This document shows positions 2,317-50,146 of a stretch of DNA of 64,000 nucleotides, in pieces. The notes under the pieces were generated by a model. The model saw only the letters and a list, made by a program, of their open reading frames with translations, did not search any database and was not told the DNA's origin. Source of the DNA: Candidatus Wolfebacteria bacterium RIFOXYD12_FULL_48_21 (GTDB lineage Bacteria; Patescibacteriota; Minisyncoccia; UBA6257; UBA9933); assembly GCA_001793945.1 (NCBI GenBank), contig MGIW01000005.1, forward strand, positions 57,923 through 121,922. Reading direction: 5' to 3'. The stretch's first letter is position 1; each line of letters starts with the position of its first letter. Position numbers and translations under genes: made by a program.

Positions 2317-2967
2317 ATGAGCAACAAAGGAAAAGAGATATTGACATGGGTGGTGTTGGCAATCGGCCTCAGTGCTATCGTAGCCGGAATCTATGGCGCA
2401 GTTGCGCAACCGGGAGAGATAGGTAAAGAAGCCGGTAGTCTTGTTGCTCCGGTGACGGCGACAGATAAAACAAAAGGCAGCGCAGCAGCAAAGGTGACTG
2501 TCGTCGAGTATAGCGATTTTGAATGCCCCGCGTGCAGTTATTTCTACGGCATGCTTAAAAAGCTTGAAGAGGAAAAGGGCGATGCGGTGCGGATCGTGTA
2601 CCGCCATTTCCCGTTGCCACGGCACCGATATGCGCGCATAACGGCACAAGCGGCCGAGGCCGCCGGCATGCAGGGAAAGTTTTGGGAAATGCACGACATG
2701 CTGTTTGAAAAGCAAAAAGAATGGTCAAGGAGTGAAGACATTCAAGGGATACTGATCGGATATGCGAGCGCGATAGGGATAGACACCGCACTGTTCATAA
2801 ATGACTTGAAAAGAGCGGATATTGATGAAAAGATCGATCGTGATATGGCACTGGGCGTTGAACAGAAAATAGAAGGAACTCCGACATTCTTTTTGAATGG
2901 GAATATGATTCAATTCCGGTCATATGAAGAACTAAAACAGCTAGTTGAGGCGGAATTAAGCAAGTGA
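2317..2967 (+). CDS. DsbA-like thiol:disulfide oxidoreductase (thioredoxin fold), membrane-anchored
   Basis: N-terminal TM helix. CPAC active-site motif in the context YSDFECPACSYFY. Confidence 0.75.
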   Translation: MSNKGKEILTWVVLAIGLSAIVAGIYGAVAQPGEIGKEAGSLVAPVTATDKTKGSAAAKVTVVEYSDFECPACSYFYGMLKKLEEEKGDAVRIVYRHFPLPRHRYARITAQAAEAAGMQGKFWEMHDMLFEKQKEWSRSEDIQGILIGYASAIGIDTALFINDLKRADIDEKIDRDMALGVEQKIEGTPTFFLNGNMIQFRSYEELKQLVEAELSK

Positions 2968-2980
2968 GAATCTCTCGCAT

Positions 2981-3090
2981 TGTCATTCCGAGTGAGGCGG
3001 TACTCCGCGGAATCGAGGAATCTGTTTCTGGTTGTGTTATACCGGCGGGTGAGGGCCTGCCCTCGACCTGATCGGAGGCCGGAATCCAGT
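2981..3090. repeat. Composite palindromic repeat element of the GTCATTCC...GGAATCCAG family
   Basis: tgtcattccgagtgaggcgg...ggccggaatccagt. Related copies occur at more than 15 other sites in the window. Confidence 0.8.
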
Positions 3091-3104
3091 ACTACTATAA
3101 CGGT

Positions 3105-3524
3105 ATGAAAAAAAATCTGACAATTTGGGCAATACTCGCGTTGAGCACTATTGGCTTCATTGACTCGGTCTATTTGGCGCTAAAGATCCTTTTGAGCTCT
3201 CCCATAACCTGTTCTGCCTTTGGCGGCGGGTGCGATATTGTCGCGCAATCAAAATATAGCGCCATAGTGGGCGTACCGCTCTCGATGCTGGGTGTGTTGT
3301 TCTACGCGGCGATTATTATCGGCATAACATATTATCTGCAAAGGCGAACAATTAAGTCCCTGGAGTGGATAGCATACGGCTTGCTATTTGGCGGATTGTT
3401 CTCGATTTACCTGCTTGCTCTGCAGGCGTTTGTCATTGAAGCATGGTGCTTGTATTGCGTGGTGGCAGACGCAATCGGGATCGCAAATGCGCTATTGGCG
3501 ATCCGGCTATTGCGAATGAAATAA
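3105..3524 (+). CDS. Vitamin K epoxide reductase (VKOR) family membrane protein
   Basis: Four predicted TM segments. Loop cysteine pair CSAFGGGC. CLYC (CXXC) in the last TM. Sits immediately downstream of the DsbA-like gene. Confidence 0.75.
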   Translation: MKKNLTIWAILALSTIGFIDSVYLALKILLSSPITCSAFGGGCDIVAQSKYSAIVGVPLSMLGVLFYAAIIIGITYYLQRRTIKSLEWIAYGLLFGGLFSIYLLALQAFVIEAWCLYCVVADAIGIANALLAIRLLRMK

Positions 3525-3637: not shown

Positions 3638-4771
3638 ATGAAATTAATCAAGCGAATCGCCCAGAAAAATATAGAAAAGGAGCTTTTTAAAGGGAGGGTT
3701 GTTGTAATTTATGGGGCAAGGCAGGTGGGAAAAACGACACTCGCGAAGGAAATTCTTACAAAATATCCCGATGATGGGGTGTATATTAATTGCGAGCAAT
3801 ATGAGGTGAGGCAGGGATTATCCGTGCGGAGCGCAGAAAGAATAAAAGCATTTATCGGAAATAAAAAACTTGTCATACTTGATGAAGCGCAACAAATACC
3901 GGAGATAGGGTTGATTTTGAAGTTAATGGTAGATACATACCCGGAGATGCAGGTCATCGCGACGGGGTCTTCGAGCTTTGATCTCATGAATAGCGTTGGA
4001 GAGCCGCTTGTCGGTAGGGCATCATGGTTCACGCTTTATCCGATCAGTCTTGAAGAAGTCGAACAGGACAAGACATTGTTTGGTGTTGAAGCACATCTTG
4101 AACATATGATGCGGTTCGGATCATACCCGGCGATCTGCTTTGAACCAGAGGAGGGTGCGATGCGAAAATTGGATGCGCTCGCTTCGGGATATTTATATAA
4201 AGATATTCTTGCATTTGAGGGGATACAAAAATCGGGCATATTGGTAAAGTTGACGCAACTTTTGGCACTGCAGGTAGGGAATGAAGTATCGCTCAGCGAA
4301 CTGGCGACGGTATTGGGAATTAGTAGACAATCGGTTTCGAAATATATAGATATTTTGGAAAAATCATTCATCATATTTCGACTACGGGCGTTGAGTAGAA
4401 ATTTGCGGAAAGAAATAGCAAAATCGGAGAAGGTGTATTTCTATGATCTTGGGATCCGTAACGCGGTCATTAGAAATTACAACCCACTGGCGATGCGTAA
4501 TGATGTCGGCGCATTATGGGAGAATTTAATGATCGTCGAGCGGATGAAGCGGAACAGTTACCATGGGCATTTCGCCAATATATATTTTTGGAGAACATAT
4601 GATCAAAAAGAAATTGATTTGATCGAGGAATATGGGGGCCGCCTACAGGGGTATGAATTTAAATGGGGGAATGCCACAGCGCGCGTACCGAAGCTATTTA
4701 TCGAGACATATAAAGATGCTACATGGCAGTTGGTGAATCGTAACAACTATTGGGATTTTATCGGAAAGTAA
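3638..4771 (+). CDS. AAA-type ATPase with C-terminal DUF4143-like domain (COG1373-type ATP-binding protein)
   Basis: Walker A GARQVGKTTL. DEAQ-like Walker B (ILDEAQ). Length and layout match archaeal-type ATPase/DUF4143 proteins. Confidence 0.65.
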   Translation: MKLIKRIAQKNIEKELFKGRVVVIYGARQVGKTTLAKEILTKYPDDGVYINCEQYEVRQGLSVRSAERIKAFIGNKKLVILDEAQQIPEIGLILKLMVDTYPEMQVIATGSSSFDLMNSVGEPLVGRASWFTLYPISLEEVEQDKTLFGVEAHLEHMMRFGSYPAICFEPEEGAMRKLDALASGYLYKDILAFEGIQKSGILVKLTQLLALQVGNEVSLSELATVLGISRQSVSKYIDILEKSFIIFRLRALSRNLRKEIAKSEKVYFYDLGIRNAVIRNYNPLAMRNDVGALWENLMIVERMKRNSYHGHFANIYFWRTYDQKEIDLIEEYGGRLQGYEFKWGNATARVPKLFIETYKDATWQLVNRNNYWDFIGK

Positions 4772-4778
4772 TGGAGAA

Positions 4779-4810
4779 CCCCCGTTCCTTGCTCAGGAAC
4801 GGGGTTTTTT
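4779..4810 (+). terminator. Hairpin plus T-run terminator (copy 2 of the CCCCGTTCCT palindrome)
   Basis: cccccgttccttgctcaggaacggggtttttt. Confidence 0.7.
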
Positions 4811-4824
4811 GGTATGGTATAGGC

Positions 4825-7800
4825 ATGTTAAAGGGAAGAAAAAAGTTTACTCCGAGCGAAGTGGAATCGGAAGTTTTGGAGTTTTGGAAACAAGACAAAA
4901 CATTCGAACGATCGGTCAAGAAACCTGCTCCGAAAGGGGAGTATGTATTTTACGATGGACCTCCGTTTGCGACCGGATTGCCCCACTATGGGCATATTTT
5001 GCAGAGCGTCATCAAGGATGTTGTTCCGCGATATCAGACCATGAACGGCAAGCGCGTGGAGCGTCGCTGGGGTTGGGATTGCCACGGATTGCCGGTTGAG
5101 AATTTGATCGAAAAGGAGCTGGGGCTTGAGACGAAAAAAGATATCGAAAATCTTGGTGTAGAGACCTTCAACGAAGCCGCGCGAGGCAGTGTTATGTCAT
5201 ATGCGCACGATTGGAAGAATATCATTCCGCGCATCGGCCGCTGGGTGGAAATGGAGAAAGACTACAAGACCATGGATGCGAGCTTTACTGAATCGGTAAT
5301 GTGGGTATTCAAGACGCTTTATGACAAAGGGCTGGTCTACGAAGGTCGCAAATCCATGCATGTGTGCCCGCGTTGCGAGACATCGTTGTCCAATTTTGAA
5401 GTTGCGTTGAACTATAAAGATATCGATGATATATCGACCTATGTAAAGTTTGCCGTTGCGGGAGAAAAAAATACCTACTTCATCGCATGGACGACCACGC
5501 CATGGACATTGCCGGGCAATGTGGCGCTGGCGATCAACGCAAAGGCGGAATATGTGACTGTTGAAGCAAGGACTGAAGCGGGTAAGGAGCGCTATATTCT
5601 GGCGAAGGATCGTCTTGCTATTATCGATGGGGAATATGTGATCGTAAAAACGGTAAAGGGCAAAGAGTTGGCCGGTACGGCATATGTGCCGCTGTTTGAT
5701 TACTATCAAAAAGGCGAATTGGAAAACCGCGAAAATGGCTGGAAGGTCTATGCGGCCGATTTTGTGACCATGGAAGACGGTTCGGGTATTGTGCATATCG
5801 CGCCGGCGTTCGGTGTCGACGATATGGAGGTAGCTCGCAAAGAAAAACTGCCATTTGTGCAGCATGTGGCCATGGATGGGCATTTCAAGCCGGAGGTGAA
5901 GGATTTCCCGGGATTGGCGGTAAAGCCGCGGGGAGACCACAAGGCGACCGATATAGAGGTCATCAAGTGGCTTGCGCACCATGGTAATTTGCTCAAGAAG
6001 CAAAAGCTGGTCCACTCATATCCGCATTGCTGGCGCTGTGAAACGCCGTTGCTGAACTACGCAACATCATCATGGTTCGTGGAAGTGACCAAGATCCGCG
6101 ATACAAAGAACGGGTTGGTGGAAAATAATAAAAAGGTCAACTGGATCCCAGGGCATATCAAAACGGGGCGTTTTGGCAACTGGGTGGCAGATGCGCGCGA
6201 TTGGGCCGTTTCCCGCTCGCGATTTTGGGGTGCACCCATTCCGGTATGGCGTTGCGATGAGTGTGGCGAGATAAAAGTAATGGGTTCCATTGCGGATATC
6301 AAAAAGAATGTGCCGAAATCGGGTAATGTTTATTTTACATTGCGCCATGGCGAGTCGCAGAATAACGCGCTCAATTTGGCAAGCTCAAATCCGAAGAACA
6401 CATATCATCTGACAAATAAAGGCAAGGCGCAGGTAGAAAAATCGGTTAAGGCATTCATAAAGCAGCTCAAGGGAAAGAAGATCGATCTGATCGTATCGTC
6501 TGATTTTGCACGGGCTCACGAAACGGCGGAACTCACCGCAAAGCTGCTCGGGTACGGAGCGAAGATCGTCATCGACAAGCGGTTGCGCGAGATCGACTGC
6601 GGCATTTTTGATGACAAGCCGATCGGTGAGTATCATGCGTATTTTGCATCGCTGGAAGAAAAGTTTATCAAGACCGCGCCGAAAGGAGAGAGTTTGAACG
6701 ATGTAAAAAAGCGCATAACGGAATTCGTATACGAAATTGATGCGAAGTATAAAGGGAAAAACATTTTGATCGTAAGTCATGAGTATCCCATTTGGGCGCT
6801 CTTTGCGGGTGTGCAAGGGTTCGATGGCAGAAAAGCGGTCGCCATGCGCAAGCCGAACAAGGACTTTATCGTCAATGCCGAAATAAAGAAATTGGATTTC
6901 AGCGTTATTCCGCATAACAAAAATTATGAACTGGATTTGCATCGCCCGTACATCGACCGGGTGGAATTGCAATGCGCAAAAGGGCACGCCATGAAGCGCG
7001 TACCGGATGTGTTTGATTGTTGGTTTGAGTCGGGTTCCATGCCGTATGGACAGGCACATTATCCGTTTGAAAATAAAAAGAAATTCGAAAAGAATTTCCC
7101 GGCAGAGTTTATTGCCGAAGCGGTTGACCAAACGCGCGGCTGGTTCTATACACTTATGGTTTTATCGACGGGCTTGTTCGGAAAGCCTGCATTTAAGAAT
7201 GTCATAACGACAGGATTGGTTCTTGCCGAAGACGGACAAAAGATGTCCAAAAAGCTGAAGAACTACCCTGATCCGATGACGATCGTGGACAAGTATGGCG
7301 CGGATGCGCTGCGCTTGTATTTGGTGTCATCGCCGATCGTTCGGGGAGAGGTGCTTAATTTTTCGGAAAAGGGTGTTGATGAATTGTACAAGAAGGTCAT
7401 TTCGCGCCTATGGAATGTATATAGTTTTTATGACATGTACGGGAAACAACTGATAACCAAAAACCAAAAACCAATAACGAAAAATGTGTTGGATACATGG
7501 ATGCTGGGTCGGCTTGATGAATTGATCGCCGAAACGACCGGCGCCATGAATAGCTATGAGCTTGACCGCGCGGTGCGCCCGATCGGTCAGTTTGTCGATG
7601 ACCTGTCGACATGGTATGTGCGTCGCTCCCGCCGCCGGTTCCAGAAGCCGGATGACAAAAAAGACTGGGAGCTCGCATCAAAAACGCTCGCGTATATTTT
7701 GTTTGAAACAAGCAAAGTAATGGCGCCGTTTACGCCGTTCTTTGCAGATGCATTGTATAAGTCGCTGAATACGAAAAAGAACGCATCCGTGCATTTGGAT

Positions 7801-8352
7801 GCGTGGCCGAAAGTCACATCGTTGGCAGTTTTGAAGGCGCATAAAAAGGCGGGGGTAATGATGGCCGAGGTGCGGACCTTGGCAAGCGTGGCGCTCGCAA
7901 AGCGCGCGCAGTTGGGCATCAAGGTGCGGCAGCCATTGTCTTCATTGACGGTCCAGTCGACCGTCGCAGGATTGAAGACAAATAAGGAGCTGTTGGCGAT
8001 CCTTGCCGACGAAGTAAATGTAAAGAATATCATCATAAAGCAATCCGTCGAGGGCATTGTCGAATTCGATACGCGTATCACACCGGAACTGTTGGAAGAG
8101 GGAATCATTCGCGAAAGTGTGCGCATGATCCAAGGGCTTCGGCAGGATGCAGGCTATGAGCCGAAGGACAAAATAACCCTGTTTGTCGACAGCGCCGCAT
8201 TGGGCGATATGGTCAAAAAATATGAAGAATTATTGAAAAAGGAAGTGGGGGCAAAGGTAATCATATTTGCCCAGGATCCGGAACATATTGATGCGTACTC
8301 CGAGCTGGTGCTCGAAGGTGATCGAATTTGGTTTGGCATCAGAAGAGCATAA
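4825..8352 (+). CDS. ileS: Isoleucyl-tRNA synthetase carrying an internal histidine-phosphatase-like domain insertion
   Basis: HIGH region PHYGHIL. KMSKKL (KMSKS). Zinc motifs CWRCETP and WRCDECGE. A start at the ATG at 4825 is preferred over the track start at 4750, which overlaps the hairpin. Confidence 0.9.
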   Translation: MLKGRKKFTPSEVESEVLEFWKQDKTFERSVKKPAPKGEYVFYDGPPFATGLPHYGHILQSVIKDVVPRYQTMNGKRVERRWGWDCHGLPVENLIEKELGLETKKDIENLGVETFNEAARGSVMSYAHDWKNIIPRIGRWVEMEKDYKTMDASFTESVMWVFKTLYDKGLVYEGRKSMHVCPRCETSLSNFEVALNYKDIDDISTYVKFAVAGEKNTYFIAWTTTPWTLPGNVALAINAKAEYVTVEARTEAGKERYILAKDRLAIIDGEYVIVKTVKGKELAGTAYVPLFDYYQKGELENRENGWKVYAADFVTMEDGSGIVHIAPAFGVDDMEVARKEKLPFVQHVAMDGHFKPEVKDFPGLAVKPRGDHKATDIEVIKWLAHHGNLLKKQKLVHSYPHCWRCETPLLNYATSSWFVEVTKIRDTKNGLVENNKKVNWIPGHIKTGRFGNWVADARDWAVSRSRFWGAPIPVWRCDECGEIKVMGSIADIKKNVPKSGNVYFTLRHGESQNNALNLASSNPKNTYHLTNKGKAQVEKSVKAFIKQLKGKKIDLIVSSDFARAHETAELTAKLLGYGAKIVIDKRLREIDCGIFDDKPIGEYHAYFASLEEKFIKTAPKGESLNDVKKRITEFVYEIDAKYKGKNILIVSHEYPIWALFAGVQGFDGRKAVAMRKPNKDFIVNAEIKKLDFSVIPHNKNYELDLHRPYIDRVELQCAKGHAMKRVPDVFDCWFESGSMPYGQAHYPFENKKKFEKNFPAEFIAEAVDQTRGWFYTLMVLSTGLFGKPAFKNVITTGLVLAEDGQKMSKKLKNYPDPMTIVDKYGADALRLYLVSSPIVRGEVLNFSEKGVDELYKKVISRLWNVYSFYDMYGKQLITKNQKPITKNVLDTWMLGRLDELIAETTGAMNSYELDRAVRPIGQFVDDLSTWYVRRSRRRFQKPDDKKDWELASKTLAYILFETSKVMAPFTPFFADALYKSLNTKKNASVHLDAWPKVTSLAVLKAHKKAGVMMAEVRTLASVALAKRAQLGIKVRQPLSSLTVQSTVAGLKTNKELLAILADEVNVKNIIIKQSVEGIVEFDTRITPELLEEGIIRESVRMIQGLRQDAGYEPKDKITLFVDSAALGDMVKKYEELLKKEVGAKVIIFAQDPEHIDAYSELVLEGDRIWFGIRRA

Positions 8353-17263: not shown

Positions 17264-17292
17264 TGTCATTCCGGCGAAGGCCGGAATCCAGA
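17264..17292. repeat. Minimal palindromic repeat unit
   Basis: tgtcattccggcgaaggccggaatccag. A similar unit lies at 17060-17090. Confidence 0.8.
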
Positions 17293-17392
17293 GGGTGAAT
17301 ATTTAAGTGGATCAAAGATGGAAAAACATAGATCACGGCCGGAGTTTTACCCTGAGCTTGTCGAACGGACCGGGATGACAAACATTCTTAAT

Positions 17393-24660: not shown

Positions 24661-24735
24661 CATACATTATAACAACCAGAATGTATTTGCAACTTTGTTA
24701 TAAGTTACTCGTTATTGGTTATTAGTCAAAGGATG

Positions 24736-28741: not shown

Positions 28742-30004
28742 ATGAAAAAATTGACACTGGACAACGGATTGCGATTAGTATTGGTGCCGCGGGAGGCAAG
28801 CTTGGCGACCACGGTGCTGGTACTGGTGGAAACGGGCTCGAAATATGAAACAAAGGATATTAGCGGCATATCGCATTTCTTAGAGCACATGTGCTTTAAG
28901 GGCACGGAAAAGCGACCGACGGCGTTTGCCATAGCAAGCGAACTCGACGGCATCGGCGCGTCGTACAACGCATTTACAAGTCAGGAATACACGGGTTATT
29001 ACGCCAAGGCGCGCCCCAAACACTTTGGGCAGATATTGGATGTGGTGTCCGATATTTATTTGAATCAAAAATTTGATACGGCGGAGATCGACAAGGAGCG
29101 GGGCGTAATTATCGAAGAGATCAATATGTACGAAGACCTGCCTATGCGCAAGGTGCAGGATGTGTTCATGGCGCTGATGTATGGCGATCAGCCGGCCGGG
29201 TGGCCTATAGCGGGCCACAAGGATGTGGTAAGTAAGATAACGCGGGAAGACTTCGTTGAATATCATAAAAAGCATTATGTTGCTGAAGCGACTATCGTGG
29301 TCATTGCAGGAGCGTTCGACGAACAGGAAGCGCTCGACGGCGTAAAAAAATATTTCGCAAACATTACAACGGGAACAAAAGGGGCGAAGGTAAAAACGAG
29401 CGAATCGCAAAGCACGCCGCAAATCGCGTTAGCGAACAAGAAAACCGACCAAACACATTTGGTCATGGGTGTGCGCGCGTTTGACCTGTTCGACGAACGG
29501 AAATACGCGCTTGAACTGCTTGCCGATATTCTCGGCGGCGGCATGAGTTCGCGCCTGTTCCAGAAGGTGCGCGAAGAAATGGGCGCCGCCTATTACATCG
29601 GCGCAGGCGCAGACCTTTCGACCGATCACGGCTATATGGATATATCCGCGGGCATCGATCATAAAAAGATCGACGATGTACTCGCGGCGATCGTGAGTGA
29701 GTTGAAGCGCATGGCCGCGGAACCGGTCGCGCCCGAAGAACTGACGCGCGCCAAGGAACACTTGATCGGCGGGCTAGTGCTGGGGCTGGAAACATCAAAC
29801 CAATGGGCAGGGTTTTATGGTTCGCAGGAGGCATTGGAGAAAAAAATGATGAGCCCCGAGGAGTTGATCAAAAAAACGCAGGAAGTAACAGCGGAACAAA
29901 TACAGGCCGTCGCACAGGATATTATAAAAAACGAAGGCCTAAACCTTGCCATCATCGGCCCATTCAAAGACAAGGAGAGGTTTGAAAAATTACTGACATT
30001 CTGA
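28742..30004 (+). CDS. M16 family (pitrilysin/insulinase-like) zinc peptidase
   Basis: Inverted zinc motif HFLEHMCFKGT (HxxEH). A start at the ATG at 28742 (MKKLTLDNGLRL), which has an SD, is preferred. Confidence 0.75.
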   Translation: MKKLTLDNGLRLVLVPREASLATTVLVLVETGSKYETKDISGISHFLEHMCFKGTEKRPTAFAIASELDGIGASYNAFTSQEYTGYYAKARPKHFGQILDVVSDIYLNQKFDTAEIDKERGVIIEEINMYEDLPMRKVQDVFMALMYGDQPAGWPIAGHKDVVSKITREDFVEYHKKHYVAEATIVVIAGAFDEQEALDGVKKYFANITTGTKGAKVKTSESQSTPQIALANKKTDQTHLVMGVRAFDLFDERKYALELLADILGGGMSSRLFQKVREEMGAAYYIGAGADLSTDHGYMDISAGIDHKKIDDVLAAIVSELKRMAAEPVAPEELTRAKEHLIGGLVLGLETSNQWAGFYGSQEALEKKMMSPEELIKKTQEVTAEQIQAVAQDIIKNEGLNLAIIGPFKDKERFEKLLTF

Positions 30005-30101
30005 TTAGGTTGTCATTCCCGCACTTTTGCATTGTCATTCCCGTGAAAACGGGAATACAGCATCCCCATGCTACATACTACATACTACACGCTACGCTAA
30101 T

Positions 30102-30845
30102 ATGAAAGTCATTCCAACAATTAACTGCACCGCATTCGCCTGTGTAAAAAAGCGCATAGAAGAAGCGCAAACTTTTTTGCCCAAATCCGCCAGTGGGCGG
30201 AGGTGGCTGCAAATAGATGTGAGTGACGGCAAGTTTAGTGAGTTTGTGTCATCCCCGCCCTCCTCTCTGTCATCCCGGCGAAAGCCGGGATCCACTACTA
30301 ATACCCGCGGAGCGCACGATAGCAGTCCAAAAAGCTGGAACAACCCCGAAAAGCTGGCGGCGTGGCTGAAAGAAAAAAAGATAACCGACATCAATTTTGA
30401 AATACACCTTATGGTAGTAGACCCGAAGCCGTGGGTCATGCGGTGGTTCGAGGCGGGCGCAAAGCGCGTCATCGTGCATGTCGAGGCAATCACCCCGCAG
30501 GACATTCTGTTTTTAAAAGGGTTTGGAAAGGGAAAGGTGGGTATTGCACTGGTTCCGGCAACGCCGCTCAAAAAAGCGGAAAAATATTTGGAGCATTTTC
30601 CATTTGTGCAGCTACTCGCAGTGAAGCCGGGCTATTCGGGACAAAGGTTCGATAGGAAGGTGCTCGAAAAGATCGTGTTTCTGAAAGCGCTCCACCCCGA
30701 TAGTATCGTAGAAATAGACGGGGGAGTGAACGCGACCACCGCACCGGCGATCAAAGACGCGGGCGCCGACATCATCGTTTCCGGTTCGTATATCTTCGAA
30801 GCCAAAGACAAAAAAGCAGCGTACAAGGAATTGAAGAAGATTTAA
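30102..30845 (+). CDS. Ribulose-phosphate 3-epimerase family protein (divergent), carrying an in-frame repeat-element insertion
   Basis: IPTI...IDVSDGKF, HLMVVDP and IDGGVN...SGSYIF align with RPE motifs. The catalytic His in DxxDGHF is replaced by Lys. The segment 30247-30300 is a copy of the palindromic repeat. Confidence 0.5.
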   Translation: MKVIPTINCTAFACVKKRIEEAQTFLPKSASGRRWLQIDVSDGKFSEFVSSPPSSLSSRRKPGSTTNTRGAHDSSPKSWNNPEKLAAWLKEKKITDINFEIHLMVVDPKPWVMRWFEAGAKRVIVHVEAITPQDILFLKGFGKGKVGIALVPATPLKKAEKYLEHFPFVQLLAVKPGYSGQRFDRKVLEKIVFLKALHPDSIVEIDGGVNATTAPAIKDAGADIIVSGSYIFEAKDKKAAYKELKKI

Positions 30846-31073
30846 CGCAAATTGCTCGCCCCGTGGTCCGCCATGGGCGGACTTTACGGGGTCATTTCTG
30901 ACGCGGGTCCCGGCTTTTGCCGGGATAAACTCCAGCAGGAATCCAGTATTCCGTTATCGGTTATCGGTTATAGGTCATGAGTTGTCCCCCATATTGTCAT
31001 TCCCGTGAAAACGGGAATCCAGTATTCTACGCAATTATGTTAAATAGGTGCATAATATAAAAATAAAAAGTAT

Positions 31074-31328
31074 ATGGCAGGTAATAAGATTGATTTTATA
31101 AAACGCTATAAGGAGCTGGTAGAGAAAGTAGAAAAAGGAGAAATAGCTATCGGAGATGCATGTTACGAAATAGGAAGAGGCATGGCGGTAAGGACATTGA
31201 GGATCGATCCGAAACTGGAAGGAATCATGAGAGAAGCTGAGGAGTTTGAGTCGTCTCCCAAAGAAACCCAAGGGAGCAGAGAGGAACGATGGGCTAAGTT
31301 AAAAAACAAGATCGAAAGTTTGCGATAA
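31074..31328 (+). CDS. Hypothetical small protein, translationally coupled to recQ
   Basis: 84-aa ORF. Its stop lies 3 nt before the recQ start. Confidence 0.35.
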   Translation: MAGNKIDFIKRYKELVEKVEKGEIAIGDACYEIGRGMAVRTLRIDPKLEGIMREAEEFESSPKETQGSREERWAKLKNKIESLR

Positions 31329-33013: not shown

Positions 33014-33123
33014 TGCTAGTCATTTGGTGTCGTTTGGTTGCCAAATTCAACCTTTTCTCTTACAATACGGAGGTGTTTTGAGCCTATGTCATCAGTTATT
33101 GGTTATTGGTTGTAGGTTAATTT

Positions 33124-39704: not shown

Positions 39705-40526
39705 ATGAACACGATCGCAAAACGAACAACTCAATGTATCCTGAAATGGCTCGCAAAGGCACATATCGCCAAAACGAAGCCATATATTATCGTGATCGCG
39801 GGTACGACCAGACGCGCATGGATAAAGGAAGCGGTGGAGCGCGCGTTACTCGAGCGCAACACATTGGTCCGCTCGAGTAAAAAGCATTTCAATGCGGAAC
39901 TTGGGTTGCCGTTGTCTATTCTGGATCTTCCGTCAGGGGAGGGGAACGCGCGCAAATGGATTGGCGTGCTATGGCAGGCTTTCAAAAAGGTTGCCGATTT
40001 TAGAAAAAAGACGATAAGCAGGGAGCGAATAGAACACCTTGTGCTTGAGTTGGCGATTGATACTCCGCGAGACATGGATTATTTGTTGAGCATCGTAAAG
40101 CCGAACATGGTGGTCATGACGACGGTGACCATGGTCTATGCGGAACAATTCGAAACCTTGGACAATGTTGCGCATGAATTCGAGGCGCTCGCCGCAGCAC
40201 TCCCATGGAATGGCATATTGGTACTGAATGCCGATGACGATCGCATCCGTGAGCTTTCGCATGCATACAAGGGCAAAACGGTAACCTATGGTTTTGCCGA
40301 AGATGCGCAGTTCAGGGCGGTCGACGCCCGCAGAACGGAAACGGGCGAGGAGTTCCGCTTTGAGGTAAAGCGCAAGGAGCTCGAGTCGTATCGCAAAAAA
40401 ATCAACAGGTTCGGCAAGCATCATATCTATGCGGAGCTGGTTCGCGAAATTGTGCTTGACAACTTCAAGGCCCAACCAAAAGATTTCTTCAACCGCATGG
40501 CAAAGGGGTTGTTGGATAGGGGATAG
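39705..40526 (+). CDS. Mur ligase-like protein with degenerate P-loop (probable pseudoenzyme)
   Basis: IIVIAGTTRRAWIKEAVERAL aligns to ITGTNGKTTT with GKT replaced by RRA. ILVLNADDDRI matches the MurF-type motif. Confidence 0.35.
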   Translation: MNTIAKRTTQCILKWLAKAHIAKTKPYIIVIAGTTRRAWIKEAVERALLERNTLVRSSKKHFNAELGLPLSILDLPSGEGNARKWIGVLWQAFKKVADFRKKTISRERIEHLVLELAIDTPRDMDYLLSIVKPNMVVMTTVTMVYAEQFETLDNVAHEFEALAAALPWNGILVLNADDDRIRELSHAYKGKTVTYGFAEDAQFRAVDARRTETGEEFRFEVKRKELESYRKKINRFGKHHIYAELVREIVLDNFKAQPKDFFNRMAKGLLDRG

Positions 40527-40530
40527 AATG
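40473..40530 (+). repeat. 58-bp direct repeat, copy 1 (the 3' end of the Mur ligase-like CDS)
   Basis: caaccaaaagatttcttcaaccgcatggcaaaggggttgttggataggggatagaatg. Has one mismatch to copy 2 at 41451-41508. Confidence 0.85.
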
Positions 40531-40585
40531 ATGGAGGATAAAAAGTGGGCTGGATTTTAATGTGTTTTTATGATATAATATAAAA

Positions 40586-40816
40586 ATGAAAACGCTTGAT
40601 AAAAAATCGCTGTTTTGGGATGTTCGCGATATCGATCCGCAAAAAAATGCACGGTTTATAATCGAGCGGATCTTGGCGTTTGGCGACTTGGACGACTTCA
40701 AATGGTTGGTAGACAGGTACGGAGTTGAAAAGATTAAGGATGTATGCGCGCACAGCAAGGTGCTTGATAGAAAATCGGCATCGTTTTGGAACAATTATTT
40801 TCGTCGAAACGCATAA
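40586..40816 (+). CDS. Small hypothetical protein, candidate cognate partner (antitoxin?) of the downstream AbiEii-like gene
   Basis: 76 aa. Its stop lies 3 nt before the start of the next gene. Confidence 0.35.
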   Translation: MKTLDKKSLFWDVRDIDPQKNARFIIERILAFGDLDDFKWLVDRYGVEKIKDVCAHSKVLDRKSASFWNNYFRRNA

Positions 40817-40818
40817 TA

Positions 40819-41448
40819 ATGCATACAGAATCAATCCACGAAGAAACAAAGAAGGTATTGGAACTATTGTCGGCGAGCGGTGTCGTCGACGGTTTTTATT
40901 TAGCGGGCGGGACGGCGCTGGCAATACAGCTCGGGCATCGGGAATCGATCGATCTTGATTGGTTTTGCAGTGCAGGTTTTTCAAACGAACAGCTGATATC
41001 CCTCTTGGCGAAGCTGGGCGTTTTTTCGCTCACGAGCGAAGATGTTGATACGGTGCACGGTGTATTGAATGGAGTAAAAATAAGTTTTTTGAAATACGAC
41101 CATGAGCAACTGTTTCCATTTGTCGAGTTTGATGGCGTGCGAGTGGCAGACGAGCGCGATATAGCGGCGATGAAGATCAGCGCCATATCGTCACGCGGAA
41201 GCAAAAAGGATTTTATCGATCTGTATTTTCTGATGCAGAAATATCACATAACTGAATTGCTTGTGTTGTTTGAGCGGAAGCATAGCGGCATTCAATATAA
41301 CATGCTGCACATTTTGAAAAGCTTGGATTTTTTCGATAGCGCGGACGATGACCCGATGCCAATCATGCTCAAGCCGATTGAATGGCCAGAGGTTAAACGG
41401 GCGATCGAGCGGGAGGTGGACGGTTATATTGCAAAATATAGGAAGTAA
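40819..41448 (+). CDS. Nucleotidyltransferase of the AbiEii/AbiGii (DUF1814) toxin family
   Basis: GGTAL motif with RESIDLDWF (FYLAGGTALAIQLGHRESIDLDWF). About 210 aa. A start at the ATG at 40819 is preferred. Confidence 0.6.
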   Translation: MHTESIHEETKKVLELLSASGVVDGFYLAGGTALAIQLGHRESIDLDWFCSAGFSNEQLISLLAKLGVFSLTSEDVDTVHGVLNGVKISFLKYDHEQLFPFVEFDGVRVADERDIAAMKISAISSRGSKKDFIDLYFLMQKYHITELLVLFERKHSGIQYNMLHILKSLDFFDSADDDPMPIMLKPIEWPEVKRAIEREVDGYIAKYRK

Positions 41449-41450
41449 GA

Positions 41451-41508
41451 CAACCAAAAGATTTCTTCAACCGCATGGCAAAAGGGTTGTTGGATAGGGG
41501 ATAGAATG
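41451..41508 (+). repeat. 58-bp direct repeat, copy 2
   Basis: caaccaaaagatttcttcaaccgcatggcaaaagggttgttggataggggatagaatg. Confidence 0.85.
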
Positions 41509-41518
41509 GTATGGAATA

Positions 41519-41548
41519 AAAACGCCGCCGGATTTTCGGCGGCATTTT
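41519..41548 (+). terminator. Rho-independent terminator
   Basis: aaaaacgccgccggattttcggcggcatttt. Confidence 0.65.
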
Positions 41549-42390: not shown

Positions 42391-43230
42391 ATGGGAAGAA
42401 AAATGGTATCCATTTCAATAGAGAAATTAAGGGAACTGTATATCGATAAATACTTATCATCCTATGAAATCGGGGAGCAATTTAATTGTTCGGATGCTAC
42501 CATTAGAAATAAATTAAAAGAGGCGGGAATCAAATTGCGATCAGGCGGTAGGAAAAAGTTCAAATATAAAAAATATTCCTTCGCGGGGAATGATACGATA
42601 AAGGCATATATGGTTGGGTTCAGAATCGGAGATCTAAATGTATATCGGCCGAGCGTCAATTCGAGAATATTAGTGATAAGGTGTCATACGACCATATTGC
42701 ATCAAGTAGATGTTATAAAATTTTTGTTTGGTAAATATGGGAAAGTAGAGGATGCAATTGGGAAAACTGGATCATATCATGTTAATGTTTATCTGGACCA
42801 GTCATTCGATTTTTTAGTGAGTAAAACAGAAATACCCCAATGGATAAAGGAGGGGGATTCTGCCGTTAAGTGGTCATTTATAGCGGGGTATGTAGACGCC
42901 GAAGGGTCTTTTAAGCTAAATCAAGGCAAGGGGCGATTTAAGATAGATGCGTACGATTACTTTATTTTGGAATGGATTAATGAATTTTTGCAAAATGAGC
43001 AGATCAATGGTAAGTTTAGGCGAATATGCGAGAAGGGGGAGCTTAAGTATGCATCCTATGTATGGAAGGATGACCTATGGAGATTGGAAGTAAATTCTGC
43101 GCATTGCTTGGAGCGGTTTATACAAGGGATGATGCCATATCTCTTACATGTCGATAGAATAAAAGATGCTAAAATAGTATTAGAGAATATCAATGAACGA
43201 AAAAAACGGGGGACAATTAAGTCATATTAG
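42391..43230 (+). CDS. Free-standing double-motif LAGLIDADG homing endonuclease-like protein with N-terminal HTH
   Basis: Motif 1 YMVGFRIGDLNV. Motif 2 FIAGYVDAEGSF. N-terminal HTH LRELYIDKYLSSYEIGEQFNCSDATIRNKLKEAG. An AT-rich gene. Confidence 0.65.
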   Translation: MGRKMVSISIEKLRELYIDKYLSSYEIGEQFNCSDATIRNKLKEAGIKLRSGGRKKFKYKKYSFAGNDTIKAYMVGFRIGDLNVYRPSVNSRILVIRCHTTILHQVDVIKFLFGKYGKVEDAIGKTGSYHVNVYLDQSFDFLVSKTEIPQWIKEGDSAVKWSFIAGYVDAEGSFKLNQGKGRFKIDAYDYFILEWINEFLQNEQINGKFRRICEKGELKYASYVWKDDLWRLEVNSAHCLERFIQGMMPYLLHVDRIKDAKIVLENINERKKRGTIKSY

Positions 43231-49895: not shown

Positions 49896-50146
49896 AGGTT
49901 TTTAGTATAGCGGAAAATGGTCATTTTGCAAATCGAATAATGGTGTGTAAGCGGGGAATATAAGGAATTGTCATTCCGACCGTATCCGTCAGCTGACGGA
50001 GGAGTGGAGGAATCTGCAGGCGGGCTCAGATCCCTTTGTAGTCCATTTGGCAGACTCAAGGCATGGCTTCCCCAGATGATAGAAATGGTAGTTTTAAATT
50101 CGTTGTGGGTTGTAGGTTGTCGGTCGTTGGTTTACAATTGGGTAAT

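Follow-up and report, generated by a model that had tools for sequence, protein, structure and literature searches.

A repeat block inside an epimerase-family gene

The window analysed here, that is, the whole 64-kb stretch of the Candidatus Wolfebacteria contig, holds at 30102..30845 (+ strand) an rpe-like coding sequence (CDS) of 247 residues, running from ATG 30102 to TAA 30843–30845 and encoding a TIM barrel of the ribulose-phosphate 3-epimerase (RPE) family. Inside this CDS, in frame, lies a copy of a hairpin repeat that is dispersed over the window and fits the class formed by NTS repeats and the related Ssn-related motif (SRM). We consider it very likely that a repeat of this SRM/NTS type was inserted in frame into the RPE-family gene, is translated and is carried as a tolerated passenger, not as a disruption.

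The single long + strand open reading frame (ORF) within 29800–31100 is longer than the CDS, extending from a TTG start over 30027–30845, and its product matches the RPE family. We place the true start at ATG 30102 because every orthologue opens with M(K/R)(V/I)IP. The 75 nt upstream of this ATG are an intergenic repeat copy (TTGTCATTCCCGC-ACTTTTGCAT-TGTCATTCCCGTGAAAACGGGAATACA) read through from the TTG, so that an earlier, preliminary description of this DNA was right to call the extension at 30027–30101 repeat-derived. The protein scores 118.1 bits against PF00834 (E = 4e-34), above the gathering cut-off of 21.1, with an alignment that covers residues 92–232 only because the insert splits the N-terminal part, and it matches RPEs in the PDB with an E value of about 1e-21. 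An AlphaFold2 model built on a 98-sequence alignment reaches an overall predicted local distance difference test (pLDDT) score of 91.7, and its top Foldseek matches in the PDB are the RPEs 4nu7, 1rpx, 3ovq and 2fli (E about 1e-16, template modelling (TM) score 0.78–0.86). Among 1,113 homologues found, the closest are 215 residues long compared with 247 here, and the nearest named ones come from Wolfebacteria metagenome-assembled genomes (MAGs).

The inserted block spans 30237..30329 (+ strand), directly after the conserved DGKF motif. It consists of 31 codons (SEFVSSPPSSLSSRRKPGSTTNTRGAHDSSP) that replace the ancestral AAT CCA AAC (NPN, in the context F-NPN-KSW), for a net gain of 84 nt or 28 residues, and the frame runs through it as ...DGKF SEFVSSPPSSLSSRRKPGSTTNTRGAHDSSP KSWNNPE.... 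The preliminary description had recognised a copy of a dispersed repeat here, in frame, and the string that it quoted is indeed found at 30247–30296; its limits of 30247–30300 contain that string, but the block is wider, and its figure of about 25 added residues, with the frame unbroken, needs raising to 28 (31 codons for 3). The empty site can be read at the DNA level: the relatives P0002 (locus L001) and P0006 (L006) have TTC AAT CCA AAC AAA AGC where the window has TTT, 93 nt and AAA AGC, and P0002 is 96% identical to the window protein over aligned columns. The loop that joins the invariant Phe of DGKF to the Trp of KSWNNP has exactly 5 residues in 93 of the 98 homologues of our alignment, all distant ones among them, and more only in the window, P0001, P0003, P0004 and P0070. 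As six independent assemblies carry the insert, it is not an assembly artefact. Every insert-bearing allele sits on a repeat-carrying contig, and the repeat-free relatives L006 (0 repeat cores in 20.6 kb) and L133 (none) lack the insert; a comparison of this kind had been proposed in the preliminary description as a check on an ancestral loop, and it speaks for insertion.

Within the block, a half-site TGTCATCCCCGC, which is a 5' hairpin arm without partner (30247..30258, + strand), and a pyrimidine spacer CCTCCTCTC after it precede the full hairpin repeat TGTCATCCCGGCGAAAGCCGGGATCCAC (30268..30295, + strand), whose stem pairs 30272–30279 with 30284–30291 around a GAAA loop at 30280–30283. The hairpin folds as RNA at -16 kcal/mol (z = -4.5). 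A right-hand module follows (TACTAATACCCGCGGAGCGCACGATAGCAGTCCA; 30296..30329, + strand); it is present in all insert-bearing alleles, being shared by the window, P0001, L130, L129 and P0003 and truncated in P0004. The NTS (CGTCATTCCCGCGMAVGCGGGAATCYRG) and a degenerate 'Ssn-related motif' were defined by Chenal et al. 2025, Nat Commun (PMC11893778), together with SsnA, a small GIY-YIG nuclease that binds and cuts NTS hairpins as single-stranded DNA (PMC11893778). We tested the SRM as the pattern HGTCWYN(0-2)YYVSBRHN(0-5)WNVSBRGN(0-2)RNCYNB plus hairpin formation; 30268–30295 matches the pattern and forms a hairpin by both fold and covariation. On this sequence basis the intragenic element fits the SRM/NTS hairpin class, which includes the Neisseria dRS3.

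All repeat counts cover the window. As a strict pattern search gave 3 matches and the family is too variable for it, we counted core motifs: TGTCATYCY occurs 29 times (20 on the + and 9 on the - strand) against 2.3 expected and a maximum of 7 in 200 shuffles. A relaxed palindrome, ATYCCS-N8-SGGRAT, occurs 8 times (0.17 expected), and the published SRM pattern 5 times (0.33 in shuffles), the intragenic copy among them. The intragenic core shares 24 of 27 positions with an intergenic copy at 17264 (blastn), and repeat clustering (families D1 and D2) joins it to six or seven copies from between genes. Simple copies have 8-bp stems and purine-rich tetraloops (GAAA, GGAA, GAAG). The layout of the block, with half-site TGTCATCCCCGC, a spacer of roughly 10 nt and a full hairpin, recurs in intergenic copies at 30011/30033, 39525/39552 and 25368/25346. 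The other copies are nearly all intergenic, often 7–30 nt past the stop codon of the upstream gene and in the same orientation, and a terminator-like T-tail is missing from every hairpin in the interval 29900–31150. Four window copies match the Neisseria dRS3 pattern ATTCCC-N8-GGGAAT exactly, whereas the intragenic copy, ATCCCG-N8-CGGGAT, fails the strict pattern; copies in the window agree with the NTS consensus at 25 of 28 positions and share its oriented, non-palindromic flanks.

Copies also lie next to the gene. An intergenic half-site plus full hairpin (30011..30060, + strand) stands in the gap that separates the rpe-like gene from that for an M16 peptidase, 7 nt past the upstream stop codon; in the relative L006 the two genes are 3 nt apart, without the repeat. 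Downstream, a related hairpin (ATCCCGGCAAAAGCCGGGA; 30908..30926, - strand) in the 3' intergenic region has 18 of 19 identities to the insert (blastn against the window), and an intergenic SRM copy (TGTCATTCCCGTGAAAACGGGAATCCAG; 30995..31022, + strand) is both a strict dRS3 match and identical to the NTS at 25 of 28 positions.

Evolution of the insert and of its flanks

The six insert-bearing alleles represent five sequence-distinct versions, all in frame and free of stops. The block is 93 nt and mutually identical in the window and P0001; it is also 93 nt in L130, with the stem CCCCGC/GCGGGG instead of CCCGGC/GCCGGG, and in P0003, with changes in the loop only. In P0004 it is 72 nt long with the stem TACCGG/CCGGTA, and in L129 it is 96 nt long, with the same outer ends and a swapped inner module that is about 85% identical to window intergenic copies at 17372 and 39661. 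Three of the six reading frames are open in the block. Across 11 aligned hairpins, pairing holds in 98.9% of stem cells and compensatory changes occur in 3 of 8 pairs; the covariation score was equalled in none of 500 shuffles.

Outside the block, the gene is under strong purifying selection. Flank ratios of nonsynonymous to synonymous substitution rates (dN/dS, Nei–Gojobori) are 0.11 for the window against P0001, 0.07 against P0002 and 0.064 against P0003 at a dS of about 1.2, with an overall range of 0.05–0.11. D39, H102, M104 and D206 are invariant in the 98-homologue alignment, and these residues and the low dN/dS together argue for a gene that encodes a working protein. Inside the block, the proportions of nonsynonymous (pN) and synonymous (pS) differences between the window and P0003 are 0.286 and 0.337 (pN/pS about 0.85), and the 16 stem bases are the same in both (16/16) where synonymous sites of the flanks differ at 59%; calculated from the alignment and the flank divergence, the neutral probability of 16 unchanged stem bases is about 7e-7. 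Because the peptide drifts at this pN/pS while the stem bases stay identical, the insert evolves like DNA, not like protein. It is the hairpin rather than the peptide that appears to be conserved, whether selection, re-insertion or conversion from other copies is the cause.

The insert lies between beta2 (34–41) and alpha2 (82–91), six residues after Asp39 on the catalytic face, which answers, on a predicted model, the suggestion of the preliminary description to locate it on RPE structures. Ten-residue means of pLDDT fall to 58 (residues 51–60) and 52 (61–70) and recover to 76 (71–80), so the insert is predicted to be a disordered beta2–alpha2 loop on an otherwise confident barrel.

In a neighbour-joining tree of the flanks, the window, P0001, L129, P0002 and L130 form a clade with 100% support, with P0003 as sister (97.5%). 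Because the tree thus nests the empty P0002 among insert-bearing alleles, with P0003 as sister, one old insertion followed by replacement or loss in P0002 is the simplest history; to judge from the empty site, clean excision of the block would not restore AAT CCA AAC. The empty allele L001 and the insert-bearing L129 both come from the groundwater assembly ERZ909573. P0001 (L005) is identical to the window over 30002–30330 and 30601–30905; over 30331–30450 it has 9 differences from the window and 0 from L130, and over 30451–600 it has 8 from the window and 5 from L130. From this pattern, P0001 evidently carries a recombination tract whose 5' end abuts the insert, a single case that could be coincidence.

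Two homologues of 144 residues, considered as frame-disrupted alleles, proved to be artefacts. For P0022, the locus L128 (GCA_003453235.1, DMLX01000002.1) has an assembly gap (N) at about 5966–6001, where the 5' part of the gene and the insertion site belong; for P0020 (L129 767–1201), the database protein has a miscalled start, and the gene behind it is intact and bears the insert. Intragenic repeats degrade assembly and gene calling alike, and the practical cost includes split domain matches (Pfam 92–232), truncation by gene callers (P0020 to 144 residues) and spurious ORF extensions.

Explanations for the in-frame repeat

On our reading, an SRM/NTS-type repeat, built as TGTCATYCC, stem, purine-rich tetraloop, stem and GGRATCCA, entered the CDS within a 93-nt mosaic block. 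With a length that is a multiple of three and open in the frame used, the block would be translated as a 31-residue segment rich in Ser, Pro, Arg and Thr and probably disordered, and translation is supported because all versions, of 93, 96 and 72 nt, are in frame and stop-free. The barrel and the conserved catalytic residues would be left untouched, with the gene still under strong purifying selection, and it is from these two features that we take the insert to be a tolerated passenger. Within the gene, the block still behaves as a genomic repeat more than as a piece of protein: compensatory change, or conversion from other copies, keeps its hairpin, one close allele has a swapped inner module, the drift of its peptide is almost neutral, and close relatives include alleles with it and without it. 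By analogy with NTS/Ssn, or with repetitive extragenic palindromic (REP) sequences and their REP-associated tyrosine transposases (RAYTs), the insertion may have been made by a nuclease or transposase acting on single-stranded hairpins; recombination between repeat copies may have done the same.

Several observations weigh against this reading. The right-hand 34 nt of the block have no second copy in the window (blastn), so a repeat origin of that module is not supported; GCGCGGAACGCGC, upstream of the L003 and L004 genes, was considered as a relative of it and set aside, as chance could account for its 14 of 21 matches. Compared with the empty site, the block junctions show no target-site duplication, and no terminal inverted repeats were found at the block, whose ends do not pair significantly; the idea that the whole block is a MITE, or miniature inverted-repeat transposable element, with such termini was dropped, the fold of the whole block being not significant (z = -1.7). 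Neither Pfam searches of the 40 largest remaining ORFs, nor regular expressions, nor phmmer with viral Ssn-like proteins found an Ssn, GIY-YIG, transposase or RAYT gene in the window. Several insertions, in place of a single old one followed by one loss, may also fit the alleles. The insert may also be less than neutral, lying in a catalytic-face loop whose length is invariant in 95% of homologues. Finally, translation of the block and enzyme activity are both points that we infer, and the exact activity appears uncertain because Gln stands at a metal-binding His position in this clade and the score against TIGR01163, 126.6 bits, is under the equivalog cut-off of 212.6.

The alternative that survives best, although we give it only a small chance, is that the element has been exapted: that the hairpin or the loop has been co-opted as a recombination boundary or hot spot, as a translation-tuning mRNA structure, or as a new loop at the surface or active site. 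Recombination of incoming DNA at such repeats has been proposed for NTS/Ssn (PMC11893778) and for arrays of Neisseria intergenic mosaic elements (NIMEs; PMC1797815). Stems conserved well past the synonymous-site expectation, with compensatory changes, would suit a function in the gene, but concerted evolution with genomic copies, or repeated insertion, explains them without one. The insert persists across a dS of about 1.2, but the peptide is not conserved (pN/pS about 0.85), and the insert is dispensable, since the same groundwater sample also contains an allele that lacks it. The tract in P0001 ends beside the hairpin, but this is one breakpoint only, and by a rough estimate the chance of one falling so close is about 30%. 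The swapped inner module of L129 and the different palindromes that occupy the same loop in P0070 also point towards exaptation.

A more far-reaching version, which we hold to be slightly less probable still, is that SRM/NTS hairpins are active in Patescibacteria and live in genes as translated mosaic cassettes, the hairpin being kept by selection or conversion and acting as a recombination boundary or exchange point. If this were so, it would amount to repeat-driven remodelling of protein loops, in line with three insertion sites and two palindrome families in one enzyme family, with module swapping and with a tract that ends at the insert, and it would tie the in-frame palindromes of Rickettsia to the same hairpin-nuclease biology.

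That the insertion has inactivated the gene, or is doing so, and that we are looking at a young pseudogene, seems to us improbable. Such decay might be expected from an insertion in a length-invariant loop beside the catalytic Asp39, and the preliminary description suspected a divergent or inactive enzyme from another feature, a Lys where it expected a catalytic His. This suspicion does not hold up. The PDB alignment sets WLQIDVSDGKF of the query against WIHVDVMDGRF of potato and LHLDVMDGHF of human, and the DGxF position is Lys in 80 of 98 clade members and Arg in the solved potato enzyme. In human numbering, we take the metal and catalytic residues to be His35, Asp37, His70 and Asp175 (structures 3OVP/3OVQ), with His35 presumably a metal ligand and a numbering consistent with our alignment; judged by this alignment, the DGxF position is neither a metal nor a catalytic residue, nor the site of a conserved catalytic His. 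A real deviation, as far as the alignment tells, is Gln37, which aligns with human His35 of the H-x-D motif in place of the metal-binding His, and scores under the equivalog cut-offs (for NF004076, 130.5 against 165) point the same way. Gln is common in the clade, however (62 of 98, with His in 34 of 98), in alleles with and without the insert, so that the deviation appears clade-wide and unrelated to the insertion. Against decay stand the dN/dS of 0.05–0.11, which also holds between insert-bearing alleles at a dS of about 1.2, the frame held in five distinct versions, and a barrel that is predicted confidently on either side of the insert. The sequence and model point to an RPE-family enzyme, presumably an epimerase.

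We regard it as very unlikely that the block is not translated at all, through ribosome bypass as in phage T4 gene 60 and the yeast mitochondrial 'byp' palindromes, or through removal from the RNA. Mobile GC-rich palindromes that ribosomes bypass are known from mitochondria, and the block does contain a stable hairpin (-16 kcal/mol). Bypass or splicing would, however, leave length and stops unconstrained, yet 93, 96 and 72 nt are all multiples of 3 and stop-free; by a rough estimate, the chance of an in-frame, stop-free block is about 0.08 per independent version. Matched take-off and landing codons are not apparent, and an Rfam scan returned tRNAs only, with no intron or other RNA family for the repeat. 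Least probable of all, and barely credible, is an ancestral long loop that most relatives have lost and that resembles the repeat by coincidence: insert-bearing alleles do span a deep node (window to P0003, possibly P0004), but the loop has 5 residues in 93 of 98 homologues, all distant ones included, the block holds a dispersed-repeat copy that fits a published motif, and repeat-free contigs of relatives lack the insert.

An in-frame, translated and tolerated insertion of an SRM/NTS-type repeat is thus the reading that we prefer, and it makes the locus a natural experiment, in which alleles with and without a 28-residue insertion adjacent to the active site, 96% identical over aligned protein columns, occur in the same groundwater community. 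The allele pair allows a direct test of how well a protein tolerates insertions of selfish DNA.

Related repeats and neighbouring features

In function, the element is like the Rickettsia palindromic elements; by sequence and organisation it belongs with the SRM/NTS/dRS3–NIME hairpins. The likeness to the Rickettsia elements lies in in-frame placement and translation, not in a sequence comparison: in both cases, dispersed palindromes sit in frame within unrelated housekeeping or metabolic genes, are translated and occupy a position compatible with the fold, and the RPE-family gene indeed has an in-frame palindromic repeat at a fold-compatible site. Rickettsia palindromic elements (Ogata et al. 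2000) are about 150 bp long, encode a conserved peptide and are intragenic in nearly half of their copies, as a MITE review summarises (PMC10969869), whereas here the hairpin has 28 nt and is part of a 93-nt mosaic block, the drift of the peptide is almost neutral, the host phylum is another one, and one gene is affected among the 29 core occurrences of the window. In-frame palindromic insertions, classically a Rickettsia phenomenon, are thereby extended to the candidate phyla radiation; our search of the literature for repeats of Patescibacteria or the candidate phyla radiation gave no relevant result.

With the SRM/NTS repeats, known until now as intergenic elements that partner Ssn nucleases, for the most part in Pseudomonadati, the element shares hairpin formation, multiple copies, clustered or mosaic arrangement and a very wide distribution; it differs by the in-frame intragenic copy in Patescibacteria and by the lack of an ssn gene within the 64-kb window. 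NTS hairpins modulate meningococcal transformation, and NTS-ssnA-NTS units resemble insertion sequences (PMC11893778); the same paper mentions neither intragenic copies nor Patescibacteria. In NIMEs, dRS3 palindromes flank variable RS modules; these arrays are intergenic and said to be confined to Neisseria, and in tbpB 13 of 19 fragments end at or near them (PMC1797815). The window shares with NIMEs exact dRS3 copies, interchangeable modules between conserved palindrome ends and a link to the ends of recombination tracts, whereas here the mosaic unit lies inside an ORF and the intragenic copy fails the strict dRS3 pattern. REP sequences, bacterial interspersed mosaic elements (BIMEs) and MITEs are likewise short extragenic hairpin repeats that form mosaics, often just past stop codons, and occasional in-frame fusions of MITEs with host ORFs are known (PMC10969869). 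Unlike REP/BIME repeats, the element lacks a GTAG head, and neither a RAYT nor a transposase turned up in the window; unlike MITEs, its intragenic copy has no visible terminal inverted repeats or target-site duplication.

The class to which the inserted element fits was defined only recently, and we found it in viral contigs and in many phyla. Run over one genome per species, the 26-nt hairpin pattern TGTCATYCCGGCGRARGCCGGRATCC matched at least 119 species-representative genome loci (L009–L127), and the phyla among the matches listed include Alpha-, Beta-, Gamma- and 'Delta'-proteobacteria, Bacteroidota, Chloroflexota, Gemmatimonadales, Ignavibacteria, Planctomycetota, Elusimicrobiota and others. 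Devosia and Sphingomonas, reported as SRM-rich (PMC11893778), are also among these matches. A slightly broader pattern matched at least 120 viral contigs in IMG/VR (L136–L215 and further loci). At one viral locus, L179, SRMs flank a 97-residue GIY-YIG (Ssn-like) ORF at 2922–3335.

A 71-residue GIY-YIG ORF lies 150 nt after an SRM, just downstream of the orthologue in L004 (1385–1708). It was considered as the missing Ssn, but we do not count it as one: its homologues in L256 and L257 (9950–10350 each) stand beside tRNA genes, and 20 kb around them contain no SRM. These GIY-YIG ORFs, of 71–81 residues, have on one side a partial 5' tRNA duplicate into which a CCTGCCTGCCGGCAGGCAGG hairpin intrudes, and on the other an intact tRNA beginning GGAGAGGTGGCTGAGTGG, complete in L256 and L257, with L004 ending at the 5' start of the tRNA. 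By this arrangement, the GIY-YIG unit looks like a mobile element that targets tRNA genes in Paceibacterota.

The block is not the only palindrome in the gene. A second one, TCCGCCAGTGGGCGGA of family 2 (30186..30201, + strand), was missed by the preliminary description; it turns PK(G/N)GW into PKSASGRRW in frame, adding ASGR (net 12 nt or 4 residues), folds at -13 kcal/mol, and is present in P0001, P0002 and L129 and absent from L130, P0003, P0004 and P0006. Its pattern CCGCC-N4-GGCGG, with 0.03 occurrences expected in the window, is found there 10 times, in many cases as the inner module of a composite TGTCAT...GGAATC element. More distant orthologues carry in-frame palindromes as well. P0070 (44% identity) has GAGCCGCCAGCGGGCGGCTC at the same beta2–alpha2 site (L008 1500–1519) and an in-frame tandem VRVSPRLVRVSPR, and P0036 (L135, gene 5001–5696) has TCCGCCTCGGGCGGA at a third site, giving the peptide SKGGSASGGQ, and a decayed palindrome at the first insertion site. 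From these sequences, distant orthologues appear to have gained palindromes independently, and the enzyme family to have been colonised repeatedly. In another enzyme, pyruvate dehydrogenase E1 of a Ramlibacter sp. MAG (DATMBW010000535.1; L094 2442–5319, - strand), an in-frame insert ARNSLDSGFRRNDREGGRNEQGGGGNDKEGGGNDGSGGGDLVFFQ of about 29 residues, derived from this hairpin family too, stands where E. coli 1L8A has RNEQDGGDLVYFQ.

Short tandem repeats of the GGTTAT/GGTTGT type and AAATTT-rich repeats also recur between genes of the window, several beside tRNA genes or SRM copies (30952–30983, 33074–33120, 24683–24729 and 50101–50132; also 10601, 20872, 54110 and 61522). The relative L006 has its Mur-ligase and LepA genes side by side; in the window, the segment 40473–43227 between them contains an AbiEii toxin ORF (40786–41445), an unknown ORF and a LAGLIDADG_3 ORF (42391–43227), and an 86-nt direct repeat (40473–40558 and 41451–41536, 87% identical) brackets the AbiEii ORF. 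At 4750–8349 (+ strand), a class I aminoacyl-tRNA synthetase of 1,200 residues, IleRS-like (tRNA-synt_1, Anticodon_1, DUF5915), carries a His_Phos_1 histidine-phosphatase domain (E = 8e-30; residues 531–695) within its catalytic domain.

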